Assembly (NCBI GenBank): GCA_965279305.1
Contig: OZ257143.1
Span: forward strand, 840,001-872,000
Source of the DNA: Gammaproteobacteria bacterium
GTDB taxonomy: Bacteria; Pseudomonadota; Gammaproteobacteria; JBIOEC01
Reading direction: 5' to 3'
Length of the DNA stretch: 32,000 nucleotides
Both the position numbers and the translations under genes were made by a program. Of this stretch, positions 872-24,757 are shown one piece after another. Every line of letters begins with the position of its first letter. Position 1 is the stretch's first letter. Below the pieces are notes generated by a model. It searched no databases, was not told the origin of the DNA, and saw only the letters and a program-made list of their open reading frames with translations.

Positions 872-2125
872 TTATTGTATTAAAGTAGAAGCTAAAGTAG
901 GTAACCACTTTAACTTGTCCATGACTTCACAAGCAATTACTACAACTCCGCATAACACAACGGCTAGCAATAAAGGCGTACCGCCAGGCACGCGAAATGC
1001 CACTTTGGCATTTTTATTTTGACGAATTCGCCACACAAATAATGCCGGTAGAATAATACAAGTAATGGCAACGAAAATACCCGCAAAGCCTAAGGCTAAT
1101 CTAAATCCTTGTGGATAATAAAGCGCAAAAGCTAAAGGAGGAATAAATGCTAATAAAATACTTTGTACGCGAGTGCTAGAGCTGCGATCTTTTCGCGCAT
1201 CCAGTAAAAAATCAAATAATCCTAAGCCCACACCTAGAAACGAAGTGGTGATAGCGATATGTCCAAAAAAGTTCATTCCTGCCGATAACCAAGAATTTTG
1301 AACAATATAGCTCATGGTCAGTAATAATGTGCCCACATCATCTTTTTTCTCGGCAATAGCGTCTTGTAATACTTGAGTGAAACTCATATCGCCTACTAAG
1401 GGAACTATGCCTAATACACCAGCTAACCAAAGCAAATAAATAACCAAGGGAATAAAACTACCAATCACAATTGCTTTGTTAATCGCGCTCACATTGTTTT
1501 GGTTATAAGAAACTAATGAGGGCACTACCACATGAAACCCAAATGAGGTAATTAAAATAGGCACGGCTGCTAGCAAATAGAGTTCGCCACCAGAGGGGCT
1601 AACGAGCTGAGAAAAATTAACATAAGGTGTAACTAGCGACATGGTGAAAATAAAAATAATGCCTTTCATACTCATCAGTACGCGATTAACCATATCAACA
1701 GAATGTGCACCCCAGAAAATAAAACTACCAAATACGCCTAAGAAAATTAAACAACTAATCCATTGAGGCAATTCAATATCGAGAAAAGTATAAAGGGAGG
1801 TAGATAAAATGGATCCGCCGCCAGAAATATAAGCGGCATTTAAAGCGTATAACAATCCTAAAAAGGCTAGCCAACAAACGCCTTGTCCTATAGGGCCTAA
1901 TGTGGTTTTAGCAATACTAATAAAGCCGTTATGGCCTACAGGAAATGCAAGTGAAGCTTCAGCGGTGAGTAATGCGGTTATGCACATTAAAGCCCATAAA
2001 GAGATCATTAAAATAGCAGCATGAGAAAACCCGGCGGCGGCTGACACAATAGGAGTGGCTAACATGCCTGCGCCAATGGCAGTACCCATTACAATTAAAA
2101 TACTACCCAGGGTTTTATTAGACAT
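872..2125 (-). CDS. Aromatic amino acid permease, HAAAP family (TyrP/Mtr-like)
   Basis: 417-aa polytopic membrane ORF. The N-terminus MSNKTLGSILIVMGTAIGAGMLATP matches the conserved start of tyrosine/tryptophan-specific HAAAP transporters. Confidence 0.85.
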   Translation of the reverse strand: MSNKTLGSILIVMGTAIGAGMLATPIVSAAAGFSHAAILMISLWALMCITALLTAEASLAFPVGHNGFISIAKTTLGPIGQGVCWLAFLGLLYALNAAYISGGGSILSTSLYTFLDIELPQWISCLIFLGVFGSFIFWGAHSVDMVNRVLMSMKGIIFIFTMSLVTPYVNFSQLVSPSGGELYLLAAVPILITSFGFHVVVPSLVSYNQNNVSAINKAIVIGSFIPLVIYLLWLAGVLGIVPLVGDMSFTQVLQDAIAEKKDDVGTLLLTMSYIVQNSWLSAGMNFFGHIAITTSFLGVGLGLFDFLLDARKDRSSSTRVQSILLAFIPPLAFALYYPQGFRLALGFAGIFVAITCIILPALFVWRIRQNKNAKVAFRVPGGTPLLLAVVLCGVVVIACEVMDKLKWLPTLASTLIQ

Positions 2126-4557: not shown

Positions 4558-6690
4558 ATGATAGATTTTAAAGAACTTATAGATGCCATCCGCGAAAACC
4601 CTGCCGAATTCTCAGGCACGCTCGATTTTTCGCATGAAGAACCTATAACCCTAGAAGAGTTGCGTGAATTGGCCGAATTACTCCCCTTAACCAAGATTGA
4701 TTGCCTGAATTTTAAAGATTGTGATATAGACGATGCCAGGGCTGAGATTATAGCGGCAGCACTCCCTAGAACCCGTGTTTGTAAGCTGGAACTACAGAAG
4801 AACCGCATTGGGAATCAAGGGGCTATAGCAATTGCCGCTGCGTTACCGCAAAGCCATAACTTGACTCACTTGAATTTACGCTACAACCAAGTCGGAGATG
4901 TGGGTATTAATGCATTGGCTGATGCGATATTGCGCACAAGACTGATTAAGCTAAGTACTTCAGGTAATGAAAACACTACCAATGAGCCTAGAAAAAGACT
5001 GTTAGAAAATTTGGATAATAATTATGAACGTGTCAAAAAGTTTACTCAGGTAATTATTCATAATGACGTTAAAATGGCTCTCAAACTATTGAATGAAAGC
5101 GTTCCTTTTTCTCTTCCCTATGGATCAAATACTCTTCATCTATTAGGAGGCGATCTGCATTTTTTTATGGCTCAATTGTTATTGCACGATGCTTATAGCA
5201 AGGGATATTTGCCATCACTGTTGAAGTGGAATGATCCTGATGCTTCAGATAACGAGTCTGATGATGAGGCAATGTCTACGAAAAATTTGATAGCTAAAGA
5301 TAACTCAAATGCAAAAATACTTCCGCTATTAGAAGCGGCAGAAAGAAGGGAGCCTATGATAGCGCCTGATATGGCAAAAGCTCCTCGCGTTATTCCTTAT
5401 TTACATATCGATACCAAAGATAAAACGTTTGATCAAATTATCGCAGAGATTAGTGAAAATCCTGAAGCTTATACAGGAACGCTGGATTTAAGCCGTGTTG
5501 AGCTTAACATGTATGGCTTTAATAAGCTTTGTGATTTATTACCTAAAACTCAATTTACTGCTCTTTCTCTTAGTCTATTCTCACTTTCTGACGATATGAC
5601 AAGAATATCCGTAGGTAATATTTTGAAAAATACTAGAAGTATTGTTCAGATGGATCTTAAATTGACGATAATGAATCTTGTGGTTGTTTGTAATCTAATT
5701 TATGAATGTAAAAGATTGGGATCTAATCTAGTTAAATTAAATGTTAGTTGTGTGAAGATAAATGATGCTGTTATTAATAGGGACAGAGATTTTAATCTTC
5801 TAAGTAATCTTGTTGAATTCACGGCAACGAATGTTGAGGGTGAAAGTTTATTTTACTCATATAAAGATAACATTGGATCCGTTTTAAAAAATGGAAGAGA
5901 TTTAGCGCAACAATTATATGATGCCGCTGAATCAGGCAATGTGTATAAAGTAAAAGAATTGTTAGATATGGGCGTTTCTCCTTGTAGTCGTTATGCTAAA
6001 AGAGATCAAAATGAATTTGGTTCTACTGTTTTAGATACAGCATTAAGAACGGGCAATTTTTTATTAACCCAGTTGATATTGCATAAAGCACAAAAAGCCG
6101 GTTATCTTTACACCTTATTAAGTTTTATTGTGCGTGAAGCTTCAGGAACGCCTACATTTGTTCCAAAACCTAAAATAGTAGAATTGCTGCAAAAAGCAAT
6201 GGGTGGAGAAATTATTGATGAACCAATTCTTCCTTTATTACAGGAAGTAGATAAACCTATGGCATCACCAGGGGTATTAGCAGCACCTGAACCTATTATT
6301 GAAATAGCTGTTCCCGATGCTTTATATCATCAATTATCGGAAACCGATGCCAGATCAGATGTTGATAATTCAAGTACCAAAGCAGTTGTAGATCGTTTCT
6401 ATGTTCCCACTCCAGAGCCAGAAGAACGTGCCGAATTGGTAGTAGATGAAATAAAACCTGTAGTTGAAGCAGCAGCTGCTCCTGTGGTTTCTACTTTATT
6501 ATCCAGCGCAGTAGATGTTACTGCAAGTGCTGCAGTGAGTATGGTTGAAAGCGTATTTTTATGGTGGACAACACCTCCTCAAAAACCTGTGCCTGTAGTT
6601 AAAGATCCTGAAACAGCAGGGCAGGAGATGCAAGTGCGTGGTGCTGCACCTTTGGTTAGAGCAGATTCTTCTGATTTAAACCCTAGCTAA
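4558..6690 (+). CDS. Eukaryotic-like protein: RNI/ribonuclease-inhibitor-type leucine-rich repeats plus ankyrin-like repeat, present as two tandem modules, with a Pro/Glu/Ala-rich C-terminus
   Basis: LRR consensus is visible in CKLELQKNRIGNQGAIAIAAALPQSHNLTHLNLRYNQVGDVGINALADAIL. An ANK-like segment is LYDAAESGNVYKVKELLDMGVSP...GSTVLDTALRTGNFLLTQLILH. The N-terminal module (MIDFKELIDAIRENPAEFSGTLDFS...) is repeated at about aa 290 (KTFDQIIAEISENPEAYTGTLDLS...). The stop overlaps convergent coaE by 15 nt. Confidence 0.75.
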   Translation: MIDFKELIDAIRENPAEFSGTLDFSHEEPITLEELRELAELLPLTKIDCLNFKDCDIDDARAEIIAAALPRTRVCKLELQKNRIGNQGAIAIAAALPQSHNLTHLNLRYNQVGDVGINALADAILRTRLIKLSTSGNENTTNEPRKRLLENLDNNYERVKKFTQVIIHNDVKMALKLLNESVPFSLPYGSNTLHLLGGDLHFFMAQLLLHDAYSKGYLPSLLKWNDPDASDNESDDEAMSTKNLIAKDNSNAKILPLLEAAERREPMIAPDMAKAPRVIPYLHIDTKDKTFDQIIAEISENPEAYTGTLDLSRVELNMYGFNKLCDLLPKTQFTALSLSLFSLSDDMTRISVGNILKNTRSIVQMDLKLTIMNLVVVCNLIYECKRLGSNLVKLNVSCVKINDAVINRDRDFNLLSNLVEFTATNVEGESLFYSYKDNIGSVLKNGRDLAQQLYDAAESGNVYKVKELLDMGVSPCSRYAKRDQNEFGSTVLDTALRTGNFLLTQLILHKAQKAGYLYTLLSFIVREASGTPTFVPKPKIVELLQKAMGGEIIDEPILPLLQEVDKPMASPGVLAAPEPIIEIAVPDALYHQLSETDARSDVDNSSTKAVVDRFYVPTPEPEERAELVVDEIKPVVEAAAAPVVSTLLSSAVDVTASAAVSMVESVFLWWTTPPQKPVPVVKDPETAGQEMQVRGAAPLVRADSSDLNPS

Positions 6691-10824: not shown

Positions 10825-11640
10825 ATGAAAAGATATCGCTCATTTTTAAAATGGCCGGGCAATAAATATCGCGTACTGGATAAAATTTGTGAGCGTCTTC
10901 CTTCTGGGCAGCGGTTGATTGAACCCTTTGTGGGCTCCGGCGTTGTTTTTTTAAATACTAACTATTCTAAATATTTACTCTCTGACGTAAACGAAGATCT
11001 GATCCGGGTTTATCAAATTCTTCAAACCTCAGGCGATGAGTTTATCAAATACACCAAAAAGCTTTTTACTCGCGCTAATAACCAATCGCATGTGTATTAC
11101 AAACGTAGGGAGCAATTTAATAAAACCAAAGACGAGTGGAAGAAAGCAGCGTTGTTTATTTACTTAAATAGACATGGCTATAATGGTTTGTGTCGTTATA
11201 ATCGTTCTGGGCAATTTAATGTGCCTTTTGGGCGTTACGCAGCCCCTTATTTCCCTGAGGCTGAAATGAAATTCTTTCATCATAAATCGCAGGACAATGT
11301 CCGCTTTATGTGCGCTGATTTTAATACCAGTTTGAAAAGTGCAAGAGCCGGTAATGTTATTTATTGTGATCCACCTTATGTACCGCTAACATTAACAGCG
11401 AATTTTACCAGTTATAGCCAATTGCCTTTTTCATTAGTAGAGCAAAAAAAACTGGCAGAATCAGCAGAGCTTTTATCTAAAAAAGGGGTTTCTGTTTTAA
11501 TATCTAATCATGACACCCCTTTTGTGAGAGAAGCCTATCAAAATGCACAGCTAGAATTTTTTTCAGTAAGCCGTACTATTAGTTGTAAAGGTGCAAGCCG
11601 ACTTCCAGCTCCTGAACTACTTGCCTTGTTTACTCAATAA
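10825..11640 (+). CDS. dam: DNA adenine methyltransferase (GATC-specific Dam family)
   Basis: FLKWPGNKYRVLDKI, EPFVGSGVVFLNT, YLNRHGYNGLCRYNRSGQFNVPFGRY and the catalytic DPPY are near-collinear with E. coli Dam. 271 aa. No adjacent restriction enzyme gene. Confidence 0.92.
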   Translation: MKRYRSFLKWPGNKYRVLDKICERLPSGQRLIEPFVGSGVVFLNTNYSKYLLSDVNEDLIRVYQILQTSGDEFIKYTKKLFTRANNQSHVYYKRREQFNKTKDEWKKAALFIYLNRHGYNGLCRYNRSGQFNVPFGRYAAPYFPEAEMKFFHHKSQDNVRFMCADFNTSLKSARAGNVIYCDPPYVPLTLTANFTSYSQLPFSLVEQKKLAESAELLSKKGVSVLISNHDTPFVREAYQNAQLEFFSVSRTISCKGASRLPAPELLALFTQ

Positions 11641-16267: not shown

Positions 16268-16372
16268 AACTGAGCCTTTAACTGACCAGGTGGTATCTTT
16301 ATTTTGATCAGTGTACTTTTATAGGACGAAGTGATATTTTGTATTTTTAGGCTTTAAGAAGTGGAGTGTTTT

Positions 16373-17878
16373 ATGGTTATTCACCAATTTATTTTTTCTG
16401 AGTTGCGCCACCAGTTTAATACGAATTTCTCTCCTATCCTTCCTCTTTTGCTTGAATATGAATTACTCCTTTTAAAGCAAAGTCTGTTTTCTAGCGAAAA
16501 TACATCTGAGAATAAAATACGCTATCGTGAAGGTATAATGGCCGCATATACCAGATATATTGATATCGCAGAAGATTTATCCTATGAAGTAGAAATGTCT
16601 GCTGGGAATAGAGAAGCTCATTTAAGAGGGAAAGAAGAGGAAATATTATTACTTGCCAAACCTTATTTCGATTATGAGGTTGCTCCCAGTGCAAATTTTA
16701 AGTTACTGTTAGAAGAGTTAAAAAGCTTAGTTGAAGAAGCACGTGTAAAATTAGAAAAAACTATTAATGAGCCTATTAATACGACCCAATATTCTCAACT
16801 GAGAGTTTCTATTCATCCTCATAATCAATTTGCTATTATTGAAGCAGTCACTTTCTCCAAAATTCCATTTTTACAAGCCTGTGCTTCAGGAGATGAAAAT
16901 TCTCTTATAGCTGCTTTTGCTAAAGCGAATAATCCCGGAAGGTTTCGTTCGTCAAAAGCTCTTGTAGAAGCACTTGTTTCTACCAAAGAAGAAAAAGCAC
17001 TTGATGAAAAAGCAGATATTTATTATGGCATTCATTTAGCGGTCATTTTTCGTCGCCCTGAATCGTTAGATATTTTATTGAAAAATGGTTACCCCGTTAA
17101 TCAGCCTTCAGAAACGAAAAAAGTAACGGCACTGCATTTAGCTTGTGAAATGGGTGATATGGATTTAGTCACAAAATTATTGAATGCGGGTGCGGATATT
17201 CATGCACTAGATGCCGATAACCTGAGTCCTTTGCATTATGGATTAAGAGGGCATGCGAACTCTAAACTAATAAAATTGTTATTAGAAAGAAATGCAGATG
17301 CCTATACTGTAGATAGCAATAATAGAAATGTATTACATATTCTTGCTACTAGAAATATTCCGTGGGACTCTAATCATCAAGTGACTGGAATGGTAGAAAA
17401 TGCACTCCAAGATCAGCTAGACATTGCCCAATTTTTTCTTCGAGATGATATGCACAAAAATCGTTTGTTAACTCAAATGACTTCAGATACAGGTTTCACT
17501 CCGAGAAATTATGCTTTAAAGTACCAAGCTCCTTTGCTCCTGCCTTTATTTAGCGAGGGTCTAGCTCCTGTACCTGGGATAGACGATCAACCTGAATCAA
17601 ATTTACAAATGCAGGCCACATTAATTGAAAGGCTAGTTCAACCTTATAAGAGTAGAAAGTTAGACAGAAATACCTTTGTGAGAGATACCATTGGCGATAA
17701 AGATCTAGCGCGCGTTAAACGAGCTCTGATAAAAAGCTATCAACAGACACCAGAAGATGGAATGGTAGCTGTGATGGCGGAGATGAAGCTAATGCCAGGC
17801 CGTCAAGTGCAATTATCTGATTTACGTAAGTCTTACTTGCCACCCGGAGCAGCACAACCCCAAGCTCAGCCCTCTTAA
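16373..17878 (+). CDS. Ankyrin-repeat protein (candidate translocated effector)
   Basis: ANK repeats: GIHLAVIFRRPESLDILLKNGYPVN, VTALHLACEMGDMDLVTKLLNAGADIHALD, LSPLHYGLRGHANSKLIKLLLERNADAYTVD and RNVLHILA. GGAG lies 6 nt upstream of ATG 16373; the track GTG at 16361 falls inside that SD. Confidence 0.8.
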   Translation: MVIHQFIFSELRHQFNTNFSPILPLLLEYELLLLKQSLFSSENTSENKIRYREGIMAAYTRYIDIAEDLSYEVEMSAGNREAHLRGKEEEILLLAKPYFDYEVAPSANFKLLLEELKSLVEEARVKLEKTINEPINTTQYSQLRVSIHPHNQFAIIEAVTFSKIPFLQACASGDENSLIAAFAKANNPGRFRSSKALVEALVSTKEEKALDEKADIYYGIHLAVIFRRPESLDILLKNGYPVNQPSETKKVTALHLACEMGDMDLVTKLLNAGADIHALDADNLSPLHYGLRGHANSKLIKLLLERNADAYTVDSNNRNVLHILATRNIPWDSNHQVTGMVENALQDQLDIAQFFLRDDMHKNRLLTQMTSDTGFTPRNYALKYQAPLLLPLFSEGLAPVPGIDDQPESNLQMQATLIERLVQPYKSRKLDRNTFVRDTIGDKDLARVKRALIKSYQQTPEDGMVAVMAEMKLMPGRQVQLSDLRKSYLPPGAAQPQAQPS

Positions 17879-22555: not shown

Positions 22556-23401
22556 TTATAACGTACTTAAATCGGGAAGTATCGTTATTCGTTGATGATT
22601 TTTAGTAGGTATACGCTTTCTTTGAGCTTCTATTAGTTCTGAGTCGATCTGTGAAAGCACTACCCCATTACCTTCTGTAAGGTGTGCAATAACTTGTCCT
22701 GAAGGCGAAACAATTAAACTATTACCGTAGGTTTCTCGAGAGCTGCCGTGTTTTCCCCATTGTGCTGAACAAATAACGTAGCTAAAGTTCTCAATAGCTC
22801 GTGCTCTTGCTAAGATCTCCCAGTGTTCTTTTCCTGTTTGAAGAGTAAATGCAGATGGGATAACAATTATATCAGCTCCCAGATTAAACAAAGTTCTATA
22901 TAATTCTGGAAAACGTATATCATAGCAAACGGATAATCCAATGCGGCCAAGGGGTGTATCAACTACAACAATTTTATCTCCAGGCATTGTAGTATCAGAT
23001 TCTCTGTATGATTCAGATGGGCTAAGAGTCACATCGAATAAATGAATTTTGTCATATCTCGCAACTTGCGTACCTTTATCATTAAATACTAAACATGAAG
23101 CATATGTTTTATTTGGATCATTGCTTTCTAGGGGTATGGTGCCTCCTATTATCCAGATCCCTAATTCACGTGCTTGTTCTGATAAAAAAGTCTGTATTTG
23201 TCCAGAGCCTTTTTTTTCCTTAATTAGTAATTTTTTTGAAGCAAAAGAGGGACCACTGCCTAATAAAGGAAACATTTCGGGTAATACCGCAAGGGTTGCT
23301 CCTTTATCAGATGCTTCTTTTAGTAGTGTTTGTGCCAAATCTAAGTTTTTAGATAAATCCATCCCTGAGTTCATTTGTATAGCCGCTATTTTTTTTAACA
23401 T
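22556..23401 (-). CDS. Carbon-nitrogen hydrolase (nitrilase superfamily, omega-amidase/Nit-like)
   Basis: The Glu-Lys-Cys triad is in context: LAVLPEMF, RYDKIHLFD and GLSVCYDIRFPELYR. 281 aa. Confidence 0.88.
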   Translation of the reverse strand: MLKKIAAIQMNSGMDLSKNLDLAQTLLKEASDKGATLAVLPEMFPLLGSGPSFASKKLLIKEKKGSGQIQTFLSEQARELGIWIIGGTIPLESNDPNKTYASCLVFNDKGTQVARYDKIHLFDVTLSPSESYRESDTTMPGDKIVVVDTPLGRIGLSVCYDIRFPELYRTLFNLGADIIVIPSAFTLQTGKEHWEILARARAIENFSYVICSAQWGKHGSSRETYGNSLIVSPSGQVIAHLTEGNGVVLSQIDSELIEAQRKRIPTKNHQRITILPDLSTL

Positions 23402-23544
23402 GGTAAATTTGATGTTCTTTGGGTTCCGTACAGATTGCTATATCTATAGCGACAATACAACCCTCTAGCTTCTTGCGCAAAAATTGGGTACACTAACCGC
23501 CTATTTTGGTAACCTGCCTCAGTCATGAGGTAGGGACTCATTAT

Positions 23545-23620
23545 GGGTGCTTAGCTCAGCTGGTAGAGCGTCGCCCTTACAAGGCGAGGGTCGGGGGTTC
23601 GAGCCCCTCAGCACCCACCA
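23545..23620 (+). tRNA. tRNA-Val (anticodon TAC)
   Basis: A manual cloverleaf fits in 76 nt with encoded CCA. Parts in order: acceptor GGGTGCT, TA, D-stem GCTC, D-loop AGCTGGTA, D-stem GAGC, G, anticodon stem TCGCC, anticodon loop CTTACAA, anticodon stem GGCGA, variable GGGTC, T-stem GGGGG, T-loop TTCGAGC, T-stem CCCTC, acceptor AGCACCC, A, CCA. Confidence 0.93.
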
Positions 23621-23656: not shown

Positions 23657-23733
23657 GGAGTGGTAGTTCAGTTGGTTAGAATACCGGCCTGTCACGCCGG
23701 GGGTCGCGGGTTCGAGTCCCGTCCACTCCGCCA
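23657..23733 (+). tRNA. tRNA-Asp (anticodon GTC)
   Basis: A manual cloverleaf fits in 77 nt with encoded CCA. Parts in order: acceptor GGAGTGG, TA, D-stem GTTC, D-loop AGTTGGTTA, D-stem GAAT, A, anticodon stem CCGGC, anticodon loop CTGTCAC, anticodon stem GCCGG, variable GGGTC, T-stem GCGGG, T-loop TTCGAGT, T-stem CCCGT, acceptor CCACTCC, G, CCA. Confidence 0.93.
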
Positions 23734-23740
23734 ATTATAT

Positions 23741-23768
23741 AAAAAAGGCACCTTTAGGTGCTTTTTTT
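23741..23768 (+). terminator. Rho-independent terminator after tRNA-Asp
   Basis: An A-run, stem GCACC, loop TTTA, stem GGTGC, then a T7 run. Confidence 0.65.
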
Positions 23769-24091
23769 ATATATTTCTGTTAGAGATTACGAGAACCCGC
23801 GACTTCAATAGTCGGGTTCGACAAAATTGCCAGGAGCAATTTTGGACGCGCAAAGCGCGCCCGCAGGGCGAAGGCCAGATGGCCTGAGTCAATCCTGTCC
23901 ACTCCACCACACTATAAAAAAGGCACCTTTGGGTGCTTTTTTTATATAGTTCTGTTAGAGATTACGAGAACCCGCGACTTCAATAGTCGGGTTCGACAAA
24001 ATTGCCAGGAGCAATTTTGGACGCGCGAAGCGCGCCCGCAGGGCGAAGGCCAGGATGGCCTGAGTCAATCCCGACCACTCCACCACACTAT

Positions 24092-24118
24092 AAAAAGGCA
24101 CCTTTAGGTGTTTTTTTT
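24092..24118. terminator. Third copy of the hairpin, placed to act as a bidirectional terminator (also ends the minus-strand operon)
   Basis: An A5 run, GCACC, TTTA, GGTGT, then a T8 run. It lies 12 nt beyond the stop (24131-24133) of the last minus-strand gene, and on the minus strand the hairpin is followed by T5. Confidence 0.55.
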
Positions 24119-24130
24119 ATAACCCCATTT

Positions 24131-24757
24131 TTAGGCTGGGCTTGGGCTATCCATTTTTTGTGGTGCTGGAGCTGTTTCTCTTCGTAGAATTGCTGAGCCA
24201 TAGCGGACTGCAATTGCTGCAGGGAAGAGGCTGAAACTCATTGCTAGCTGATAGCCTGTATTGGCGAATACATTTTGGCTATTTAAAGCGCTAGGTAGTA
24301 TGGCTGCTGTTGCAACGATGATACCCGTTAATATTCCAAGCGCATTATCTAAAGTTGAGAGGCGGATATAGATGTTTTTGTTCTGCTTTATTTCTTCTTG
24401 AGATGGCATGGTAACAACACCGATAATGGCCATTACAATGGCAATTCCTGCTGTTACTAGGCCTGCTATTACTGCTAATGTGTCAGAAACAATAGGAAAA
24501 GAGTTTATAAACGTTAGCCAAAGACCCAATGCCAATAAACCTACCGCAAGCGTACCCATAAATCTTGCGTATTGTTGTGCTCTAGAAAGAGGTAGTGTGG
24601 AGCCTGTTTCTTTAGCCTTGGAGACGGCAGTGACAGAAGTCGTAGTGCCATAATCTTGTGGGGCTACGGGAAGTAGCACAGTACGGGCAGTACTTGGAGA
24701 AAATACGGTATTGGGAGCATTATGTTCTTGTATATTTAATTTTGCAGTTATTGTCAT
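24131..24757 (-). CDS. Membrane protein with two hydrophobic hairpins (4 TM)
   Basis: 208 aa. TM pairs are FMGTLAVGLLALGLWLTFI / TLAVIAGLVTAGIAIVMAIIGVV and ALGILTGIIVATAAILPSAL / YQLAMSFSLFPAAIAVRYG. AAGAGG SD lies 5-6 nt before the ATG. No known domain. Confidence 0.65.
   Translation of the reverse strand: MTITAKLNIQEHNAPNTVFSPSTARTVLLPVAPQDYGTTTSVTAVSKAKETGSTLPLSRAQQYARFMGTLAVGLLALGLWLTFINSFPIVSDTLAVIAGLVTAGIAIVMAIIGVVTMPSQEEIKQNKNIYIRLSTLDNALGILTGIIVATAAILPSALNSQNVFANTGYQLAMSFSLFPAAIAVRYGSAILRRETAPAPQKMDSPSPA

Follow-up and report, generated by a model that had tools for sequence, protein, structure and literature searches.

We analysed a 32,000-nucleotide (nt) stretch of the genome of an uncultured gammaproteobacterium (assembly GCA_965279305.1, contig OZ257143.1, positions 840,001 to 872,000), hereafter referred to as the window, in which a tRNA-Asp gene is followed by a short tandem array whose units each end in an imperfect copy of the 3′ end of that tRNA. 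It is highly probable that the array consists of two tandem copies of an RtT-type, tRNA-linked structured RNA element, a divergent relative of the Rfam family RF00391. The features of the locus are listed here in window coordinates; R1 denotes a covariance model which is described below.

23545-23620, plus strand: tRNA-Val (TAC), identified by ARAGORN, 70.7 bits with the Rfam tRNA model; first gene of the presumed transcription unit
23657-23733, plus strand: tRNA-Asp (GTC), identified by ARAGORN, 70.4 bits with the Rfam tRNA model; the unit tails copy its 3′ end, GAGTCCCGTCCACTCCGCCA
23736-23773, plus strand: terminator-like hairpin T1, from a consensus scan of both strands; A-tract, GGCACC-TTTA-GGTGC, T-tract
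23793-23819, plus strand: unit 1 hairpin P2 (GAACCC..GAC / GTC GGGTTC), from RNAfold; its 3′ strand is the conserved GGTTCGA block
23813-23894, plus strand: unit 1 conserved core, 79.0 bits with R1 (E 4e-20), all model pairs standard
23822-23844, plus strand: unit 1 hairpin 1 (loop CAGGA), part of core 1
23847-23859, plus strand: unit 1 hairpin 2, part of core 1
23860-23868, plus strand: unit 1 CCC-GCA-GGG hairpin, part of core 1
23817-23820 with 23869-23872, plus strand: unit 1 possible long-range helix UUCG/CGAA, part of core 1
23873-23884, plus strand: unit 1 hairpin 3 (loop AGAT), part of core 1
23892-23909, plus strand: unit 1 tRNA-like tail, ATCCTGTCCACTCCACCA, which ends in CCA; 13 of its last 15 nt match tRNA-Asp
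23913-23946, plus strand: terminator-like hairpin T2, a copy of T1 with the loop TTTG, from the consensus scan and the unit alignment
23968-23994, plus strand: unit 2 hairpin P2, from RNAfold
23988-24070, plus strand: unit 2 conserved core with the hairpin 1 loop CAGGA and the hairpin 3 loop AGGAT, 86.3 bits with R1 (E 4e-22)
24068-24085, plus strand: unit 2 tRNA-like tail, ATCCCGACCACTCCACCA
24092-24118, plus strand: terminator-like hairpin T3, which makes up the partial third copy; identified in the sequence and the alignment

Tandem Repeats Finder detected a single array (23738-24121) with a period of 175, 2.2 copies, 95% matches and a score of 712. In register with the CCA ends, the unit alignment gave two 176-nt units (23734-23909 and 23910-24085) followed by a partial third copy of 40 nt, which holds the terminator hairpin only. 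A preliminary description of this DNA, made from the sequence alone, had proposed about 2.2 tandem units of 176 base pairs (bp) after tRNA-Asp, with CCA ends exactly 176 nt apart, and both points were confirmed (CCA ends at 23733, 23909 and 24085). It had also proposed that a degenerate tRNA-Asp 3′ end closes each unit, which a search with the 3′ 13-mer of the tRNA bore out: with up to 2 mismatches, only three sites were found in the 32-kb window, namely the tRNA and the two tails, at which the copies carry 1 and 2 mismatches, while 0.19 sites were expected by chance and none of 100 shuffles reached 3. Over ~20 positions the tails differ from tRNA-Asp by 3-4 mismatches, including a change of the discriminator base from G to A.

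Each unit is built of a short spacer, hairpin P2 with GGUUCGA in its 3′ strand, a core of ~85 nt, GAGU(C)A, the tRNA tail and a terminator. The core contains three covarying hairpins and a small CCC-GNA-GGG hairpin, and the tail copy extends from the T-loop 'AUCC' to the CCA of the upstream tRNA. The hairpins listed in the preliminary description were recovered by RNAfold and by the covariance model, but its four-hairpin unit falls short, as the CCC-GNA-GGG hairpin and the possible UUCG/CGAA helix make more than four helices. Of the three terminator copies it had noted, the consensus scan found two and the third was read from the sequence. Apart from the first four bases after the CCA (23734-23737 versus 23910-23912), units 1 and 2 differ at six places only, which agrees with the claim that the changes lie in loops, unpaired spacer and tail: the terminator loop (23756/23931), the unpaired spacer (23774/23949), the loop of hairpin 2 (23852/24027), a one-base indel in the loop of hairpin 3 (at 24053) and two tail positions (23896/24072 and 23898/24074). 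Judging from its sequence, T1 could terminate transcription in both directions. T3 lies 13 nt from the stop codon of a convergent open reading frame (ORF; 24131-24757, minus strand, from the ORF list), which it probably serves too.

RtT has been known since the tyrT locus was sequenced, was named in 1991 and is usually treated as an enterobacterial curiosity. In that year, Bösl and Kersten reportedly described the 178-bp RtT repeats of the Escherichia coli tyrT-tyrV locus. An Rfam scan, one of the checks that the preliminary description had suggested, gave the lead to this family when run at permissive E-values, through full-length matches to both units. Its statement that no known family fits was thus wrong, as the units are distant relatives of RtT (RF00391) and of sX4 (RF02223).

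In E. coli K-12, the tyrT-tyrV locus carries four RtT copies scoring 133-137 bits, three of which are spaced 178 bp, and each copy ends in the last 19 nt of tRNA-Tyr. The E. coli and window units share one plan, GAGAA-C..CGAC ... GGTTCGAC, a 37-nt gap, CCCGnAGGGCGAAG, a hairpin, TGAGT(c)AATCC and a tRNA tail. The 5′ block reads GAGAAGCTTCGAC in E. coli and GAGAACCCGCGAC in the window; it is followed in both by the T-arm-like block GGTTCGAC, a 37-nt gap with two hairpins, the central block CCCGnAGGGCGAAG and a third hairpin. The 3′ block then reads TGAGTAATCC in E. coli and TGAGTCAATCC in the window, and both end in the tail of the neighbouring tRNA with a CCACCA terminus. Both lie directly 3′ of a tRNA gene and on its strand, with core 1 starting 79 nt after tRNA-Asp and the E. 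coli cores 80-83 nt after their tRNA. The tandem unit measures 178 bp in E. coli versus 176 bp in the window, and the tail corresponds in both to the ~19 nt of the tRNA 3′ end with CCA, exact in E. coli and imperfect in the window. On the other hand, the E. coli element sits on tRNA-Tyr and that of the window on tRNA-Asp; the window has GGA loops, which are absent from E. coli; the outer helix P1 has 10 bp in E. coli but 3-4 bp in the window; an intrinsic terminator follows the tRNA and every unit in the window, not in E. coli; and the tpr ORF of E. coli has no counterpart in the window.

In Xanthomonas, tRNA-Ser is followed by tandem sX4 units with a GGTTCGAC ... CCCGnAGGGCGAAG ... GAGTGAATCC core and a tRNA tail, and the Rfam sX4 model includes tRNA-Ser itself. 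The core gap there is 31 nt, versus 37 nt in the window, and the loops lack GGA.

Relatives were collected by scanning one genome per species with the pattern GGTTCGAC-N(30-44)-CCCGBAGGGCGAAG, which excludes A at one position against a flood of enterobacteria; the source organism of the window was not among the returned loci. The scan returned 81 loci, of which ~68 were true relatives and ~13 were dropped as chance matches in coding DNA or ordinary tRNAs. The relatives came from Xanthomonas, Pseudoxanthomonas, Bowmanella, Lacimicrobium, Alteromonas, Microbulbifer, Sedimenticola, Steroidobacter, Dokdonella, Rudaea, Arenicella, Enterobacter, Escherichia albertii and many uncultured Gammaproteobacteria. 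The Rfam RtT model reaches its threshold in the non-enteric loci L036, L071, L022, L023 and L053, and the Xanthomonas copies are annotated by sX4 (locus L004 scored 89-187 bits under that model), while most window-type loci score below every Rfam threshold.

The model R1 was built from 28 cores of other organisms, leaving the window out, with a hand-written structure of five helices. With filters off it gave exactly two matches in the window, the cores of units 1 and 2, with the next best match at 7 bits. Among the fetched loci it scored the E. coli RtT copies at 52-59 bits and the Xanthomonas sX4 units at 39-46 bits. As one model matches the window units, E. coli RtT and Xanthomonas sX4, the three are branches of one family. 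A metagenome scan served as a second, independent set, for which the window's 30-nt hairpin 1 was the only query, and yielded 78 contigs from soil, marine and sediment samples.

The conserved structure was assessed in three alignments. In A2 (plain MAFFT, 28 cores), 91.5% of the cells were paired, 14 pairs showed compensatory changes and the covariation score was 0.323, against 0.08 for the best slid control. In A3 (107 distinct rows) the corresponding values were 95.0%, 20 of 25 pairs and 0.505, with the best slid control at 0.084, and in A4 (90 distinct rows, chosen on hairpin 1 alone) they were 96.9%, 17 of 25 pairs and 0.362, with the best slid control at 0.045. A3 and A4 were fitted to the model, which favours it, but the plain MAFFT alignment had already given the same picture. 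RNAalifold on the plain MAFFT alignment missed hairpin 2, which varies in length, and this was solved by the hand-written structure and model-based realignment. The blocks that are invariant in A2 and A3 are so partly by design, since the relatives were fished with window and E. coli patterns. In the metagenome set these formerly forced blocks vary in a paired manner, GCCC-GNA-GGGC becoming GUCC..GGAC or GCCU..GGCC, and CGAAG becoming CGGAG or CGAGG.

G·U pairs exceeded A·C pairs by 49:13 and 94:13, which points to an RNA read from the tRNA strand rather than to a DNA hairpin or an RNA of the opposite strand. On these grounds the unit core is very likely a conserved structured RNA encoded on the tRNA strand. 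A covariation test across homologs, as suggested at the outset, came out in favour of a tandemly duplicated small structured RNA, with 17-20 of 25 pairs compensatory, scores far above the slid controls, compensatory changes across about 200 homologous copies and an excess of G·U pairs. In Bowmanella denitrificans (L026), R1 matches of 36-43 bits at 493-575, 1385-1468 and 1623-1706 (plus strand) lie opposite to the strand of a tRNA-Glu/Ala cluster and overlap, or are close to, matches on the minus strand; hairpin 1, which is nearly palindromic, and inverted copies probably account for them.

In the UUCG/CGAA helix, U-A and U·G pairs alternate (41:32 and 48:24), which supports this long-range helix in the relatives, whereas for the window RNAfold favours P2. 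One and the same UUC is used by P2 (GAACC/GGUUC) and by the UUCG/CGAA helix (23793-23822 with 23869-23872 in unit 1, and 23968-23997 with 24045-24048 in unit 2), which are therefore mutually exclusive. They may represent a switch between two states. The arrangement homologous to P2 in the relatives reads GAGAACC...GGTTCGAC.

The association with tRNA genes was as regular as the structure. A tRNA lay 20-110 nt upstream of 100 R1 matches, which are the first units of their loci, and all 100 were on the strand of that tRNA; the distance from the tRNA to the core was always about 45-95 nt in the relatives. The first units by upstream tRNA were as follows.

Ser 46, Gln 18, Tyr 15, Arg 9, Glu 4
Lys 2, Phe 2, Val 2, Leu 1, Asp 1 (the window)

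Whatever the identity of the tRNA, the tails copy the neighbouring one from the T-loop 'ATCC' to the CCA. When compared with the last 15 nt of that tRNA, 45 of 96 tails matched at all 15 positions and 64 of 96 at 13 or more, with 13 in the window. The outer helix P1, formed by the tail and an upstream strand, reached at least 7 bp in 29% of the units, versus 7.9% when the tails were swapped between units, and it co-varies with the tRNA-specific sequence, as in GGGGAAGGAT/ATCCTTCCCC, AGGTGGAT/ATCCACCT and GGCGGGAT/ATCCCGCC.

Several observations weigh against assigning the window units to RtT. The Rfam RtT matches span the full model (positions 1-130), but they reach only 18.2 bits (23769-23909) and 17.0 bits (23940-24085), with E-values of 0.37 and 0.77 in a 326-nt search, against a gathering threshold of 45, and under the operational rule of Rfam the window units are not RtT members. 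The long P1, for which the strand upstream of GAUGAGAA was searched in an anchored manner, gave no clear signal in the window, where P1 is limited in both units to GAU/AUC (3 bp; GAUU/AAUC if shifted by one). With their tails drifted from tRNA-Asp at 3-4 positions, the copies in the window may be in decay. Unit 1 is separated from tRNA-Asp, and unit 2 from unit 1, by what looks like a strong intrinsic terminator, and the consensus scan found no promoter-like site for the units in the window. The sequences for the R1 seed were found with a pattern drawn from the window and E. coli, so that the R1 score of the window is inflated by choice. A blastn search of one unit against 5,426 E. coli genomes gave no similarity beyond the terminator hairpin, as the hairpins occupy the same places with entirely different sequences. 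To our knowledge, no function has been established for any member of the RtT/sX4 family. Since two of the RtT characters tested (the Rfam score and the long outer helix) are lacking and the others are present, the unit is a variant rather than a plain member: a divergent form of RtT/sX4 which sits on tRNA-Asp, carries a terminator in each unit and scores below the Rfam threshold, and not a new kind of system.

The terminator-only blastn match in E. coli was regarded as chance. The sX4 (RF02223) model gave no match in the window even at E-values up to 10. Other weak Rfam matches, namely TD-2 (26.6 bits, minus strand), STnc130, STnc370, SpF25, FtrA, Thr_leader and RNAI, as well as several microRNA and small nucleolar RNA models, were likewise rejected as chance; each is due to the terminator hairpin and scores far under its threshold.

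The preliminary description had offered, as one of two readings, that the units are reiterated attachment (att)-type junctions of an element which integrates at the tRNA-Asp 3′ end, and that an island borders on them. Indeed, each unit ends with a near-copy of the tRNA 3′ end from the T-loop, as do the direct repeats attL and attR in tRNA genes, and integrases commonly target this part of a tRNA gene; the gene order shared with the closest relative (L083, with a 93% identical hydrolase) breaks off exactly at the boundary between the hydrolase and tRNA-Val, and the downstream genes, a Sel1-kinase and an FG-GAP protein, look accessory. But none of the 20 window ORFs searched with Pfam carries the domain of an integrase, recombinase or transposase, and no further tRNA-Asp end occurs within the 8 kb downstream, up to the end of the window, a more distant repeat being still possible; neither the distal copy nor the integrase which had been proposed as checks thus came to light. 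The repeats are 176 bp apart, not kilobases, and what they enclose is not an integrase element but a conserved structured RNA that recurs in many genomes, downstream of at least ten different tRNAs, with constant spacing and only on the strand of the tRNA, a pattern unlike that of independent integration scars. In 2.9 million viral contigs, the general repeat pattern was nearly absent, with 2 loci only, both of the E. coli tyrT type. We conclude that the repeats are not integration scars, and the att reading is extremely unlikely. The array might alternatively be a neutral local duplication of functionless pseudo-tRNA debris, a dead tRNA-Asp 3′ half with a terminator, for which 2.2 copies at 95% identity are what unequal crossing-over is expected to produce; the near loss of P1, the drifted tails and terminators that may block expression point the same way. 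We hold this to be very unlikely, since the core is not tRNA-Asp sequence and is conserved with compensatory changes over Gamma- and probably Betaproteobacteria, both window cores keep all model pairs and outscore the expressed E. coli RNA under R1, and the differences between the copies avoid the stems. That the unit encodes a small basic peptide like E. coli Tpr, a 29-amino-acid 'protamine-like protein' annotated inside rttR, is scarcely credible. The E. coli tpr starts at the ATG of GGATGAGAA and stops at the TGA of CTGAGTAATCC, both in conserved blocks, and mechanical ORFs with TTG starts (40 and 61 amino acids) cross the window units. The window, however, reads ACGAGAA with no ATG; the ATG was present in 13 of 56 units, the frame and length of the ORF vary (6 to >41 amino acids), E. 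coli alone has an ORF that stops at the conserved TGA, the length changes in the hairpins are not multiples of three, and the substitutions are those of compensatory pairing. The Tpr-like small ORF was therefore rejected.

Two further proposals concern the origin of the RtT-type element and its possible role. The core may be a past or present mobile cassette that enters tRNA T-loops between GGTTCGA and ATCC, by gene conversion via the near-universal T-loop sequence or through the action of some enzyme, the window units then descending from a colonised second tRNA-Asp; this bears on origin, does not conflict with the RtT assignment, and seems to us distinctly unlikely. Removal of the core restores a complete cloverleaf tRNA in 9 loci (Tyr, Gln, Glu, Gly, Ser(GCT) and Val), and thus the core sits where the T-loop would be. 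These T-loop-interrupted tRNAs (Gly-TCC, Ser-GCT, Val-GAC, Tyr, Gln and Glu, with a core of ~85 nt), whose restored cloverleaf is accepted by ARAGORN, include L123 65-161, L145 1180-1266, L118 4330-4425, L031 4723-4812, L043 177-266, L070 143-232, L037 6974-7057 and L026, and in L123 and L145 the acceptor stem and CCA look intact. Further tRNA bodies are fused directly to GGTTCGAC in the metagenome set, the same core is joined to the tails of at least ten tRNA identities, and cores occur head-to-tail without tails between them, at a junction ...GAGTAC|AAAATTG..., in L005 (109-485), L009 (3188-3443), L010 (4955-5037), L062 (650-755), L139 (~11492-11576) and L163 (2091-2173), so that the core can be repeated apart from the tRNA-end unit. 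Yet no associated enzyme, terminal inverted repeats or target duplication were seen, the copies within one genome are diverged (L003 versus L026, Bowmanella denitrificans), which speaks against recent spread, the strand-specific G·U pairs indicate RNA-level selection that a purely selfish DNA would not need, and the fused forms could also arise by deletion between the T-loop of the tRNA and the GGTTCGA of the downstream unit. The origin may lie either in a T-loop-colonising cassette or in local deletions between a tRNA and a downstream unit; in most units, including those of the window, the tRNA body is replaced by a short 5′ strand and hairpin P2. As for the role, a strong form of the other reading of the preliminary description makes the unit RNA a CsrA/RsmA sponge that titrates the translational repressor, as CsrB or RsmY/Z do, through the GGA loops of hairpins 1 and 3, of which each unit has two and the tandem array correspondingly more. 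This is unlikely, although from sequence it appears a reasonable idea for the branch with GGA loops. In the AAAAU-type subfamily, most copies have a C-N-GGA loop 1 and an A(N)GGA(N) loop 3; GGA was present in loop 1 of 59 and in loop 3 of 57 of 119 copies, and in both in 49. The window loops are CAGGA, CAGGA and AGGAT, with the fourth degraded to AGAT, and tandem arrays raise the number of sites. GCAGGAUGC resembles the CsrA consensus from systematic evolution of ligands by exponential enrichment (ACARGGAUGU, with GGA in the loop). Repeated GGA motifs in loops followed by an intrinsic terminator are also the layout of CsrB, CsrC, RsmX, RsmY and RsmZ, but there is no homology to these RNAs, none gave an Rfam match, the window has only 3 intact sites, far fewer than the roughly 5-20 of known CsrA sponges, and the element shows no evident promoter of its own. 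In the branches of E. coli and Xanthomonas these loops lack GGA (CA/GCA, CGCAG etc.), so CsrA binding cannot be the function of the whole family. An alternative role for the GGA loops would be base pairing with the invariant AUCC of the tail, or docking on the GGUUCGA block in the manner of a D-loop. Both proposals would come together in one much larger undescribed family with RtT, sX4 and the window units as its branches, in which an ~85-nt cassette settling in the T-loop of duplicated tRNA genes gave rise to tRNA-tailed regulatory RNAs and the two GGA loops per unit of the largest subfamily sequester CsrA/RsmA-type proteins, a combination that we regard as very doubtful. If true, tandem amplification behind a tRNA would set the dose of a tRNA-coupled, and thus growth-rate-coupled, CsrA antagonist.

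Returning to the window units as RtT-type RNAs, their expression would depend on read-through, because terminators precede them and no promoter was found; the preliminary description had given the structured RNA its own terminator, which holds as sequence, but only ~25 nt separate a unit from the preceding T-run. As in the window, 44 of 100 related loci have a hairpin and T-run resembling an intrinsic terminator in the interval from the tRNA to the core. In L024 (7127-7392), the post-tRNA trailer and the start of the terminator recur base for base after the element tail, as far as the flank was read, giving the order tRNA end, terminator, element, tRNA end, terminator.

We propose that the units would be transcribed from the tRNA-Val/tRNA-Asp promoter by read-through of a leaky terminator, and that they would be cut out and trimmed by the nucleases of tRNA maturation, since each unit ends like a tRNA (a stem plus ...NCCA). 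The RNAs so produced would be stable and about 140-175 nt long. The copy number would shift through unequal crossing-over among the direct repeats (the tRNA 3′ end, tails and terminators), and the same exchanges would keep the tails like the tRNA. For these steps of read-through, processing and recombination we see about even chances. The RNA might act as a protein decoy, either for a GGA-binding protein of the CsrA/RsmA type through loops 1 and 3 or for a factor that recognises tRNA 3′ ends; this is speculative, and we consider it possible but unlikely.

Comparable biogenesis is known elsewhere. Lalaouna et al. are said to have described in 2015 3′ETS-leuZ, the 3′ external transcribed spacer of a tRNA operon, as a sponge for the small RNAs RyhB and RybB. 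It is released from the 3′ part of a tRNA transcript by the tRNA-processing machinery, and the window units would arise in the same way; on the other hand, it shares no sequence or structure similarity with them, and it pairs with small RNAs, a target that is neither known nor predicted here. Overexpression of the rtT RNA in E. coli was reportedly found by Bösl and Kersten in 1991 to alter the response to amino-acid starvation. Members of the family are expressed in other bacteria. The rttR gene is annotated as a small RNA in E. coli K-12 and is described as encoded by a tyrT repeat unit (PMC3318445). In Xanthomonas, RtT was listed with the widely conserved RNAs, a group whose members were for the most part strongly expressed, and Northern blots detected sX4 of Xanthomonas campestris pv. 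vesicatoria (PMC3300014), while in Herbaspirillum sX4 was expressed next to trnG/tufB (PMC6337395). The starvation effect of the rtT RNA is echoed in a recent preprint (bioRxiv 10.1101/2024.07.17.603846).

Regarding the surroundings of the array, comparison of 23401-23545 in the window with 2377-2415 in L083 showed that in the relative, which lacks a tRNA there, a methyltransferase gene lies at 38 nt from the hydrolase. No tRNA lay next to the hydrolase in the relatives that carry it at 93%, 70% and 68% protein identity, and an exact-protein look-up of the flanking hydrolase gave no record. The tRNA locus may be a breakpoint of genome rearrangement. Elsewhere in the window, three genes encode eukaryote-like proteins.

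4558-6690, plus strand: leucine-rich-repeat protein
16361-17878, plus strand: ankyrin-repeat protein
26263-28074, minus strand: Sel1-repeat protein fused to a Ser/Thr kinase domain

The ORF at 28087-31296 (minus strand) encodes a 1069-amino-acid protein with FG-GAP, PT-repeat and cadherin-like matches. It contains a 12-nt unit, GTTGGTGCATCA, repeated 17.8 times at 98% identity and followed by 15- and 30-nt variants, as well as a 216-nt unit in 1.8 copies (repeats at 29096-29367 and 30595-30987), and these repeats are likely to vary in length. With 32-47% GC the genome is AT-rich, and this, together with the eukaryote-like proteins, suggests that the source is a host-associated, Legionellales-like gammaproteobacterium.

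The array extends the RtT architecture to tRNA-Asp in an uncultured, AT-rich and probably host-associated gammaproteobacterium. Relatives of the element follow tRNA genes of at least ten kinds in bacteria of soil, marine and sediment habitats, and most of these copies fall below the standard reporting threshold of Rfam. For annotation, this means that repeats of a tRNA 3′ end a few hundred bases behind the tRNA gene should not be taken as island borders until an RtT-type element has been checked for. The tails copied from the neighbouring tRNA, and the GGA loops conserved in a large subfamily, make the function of the family testable.

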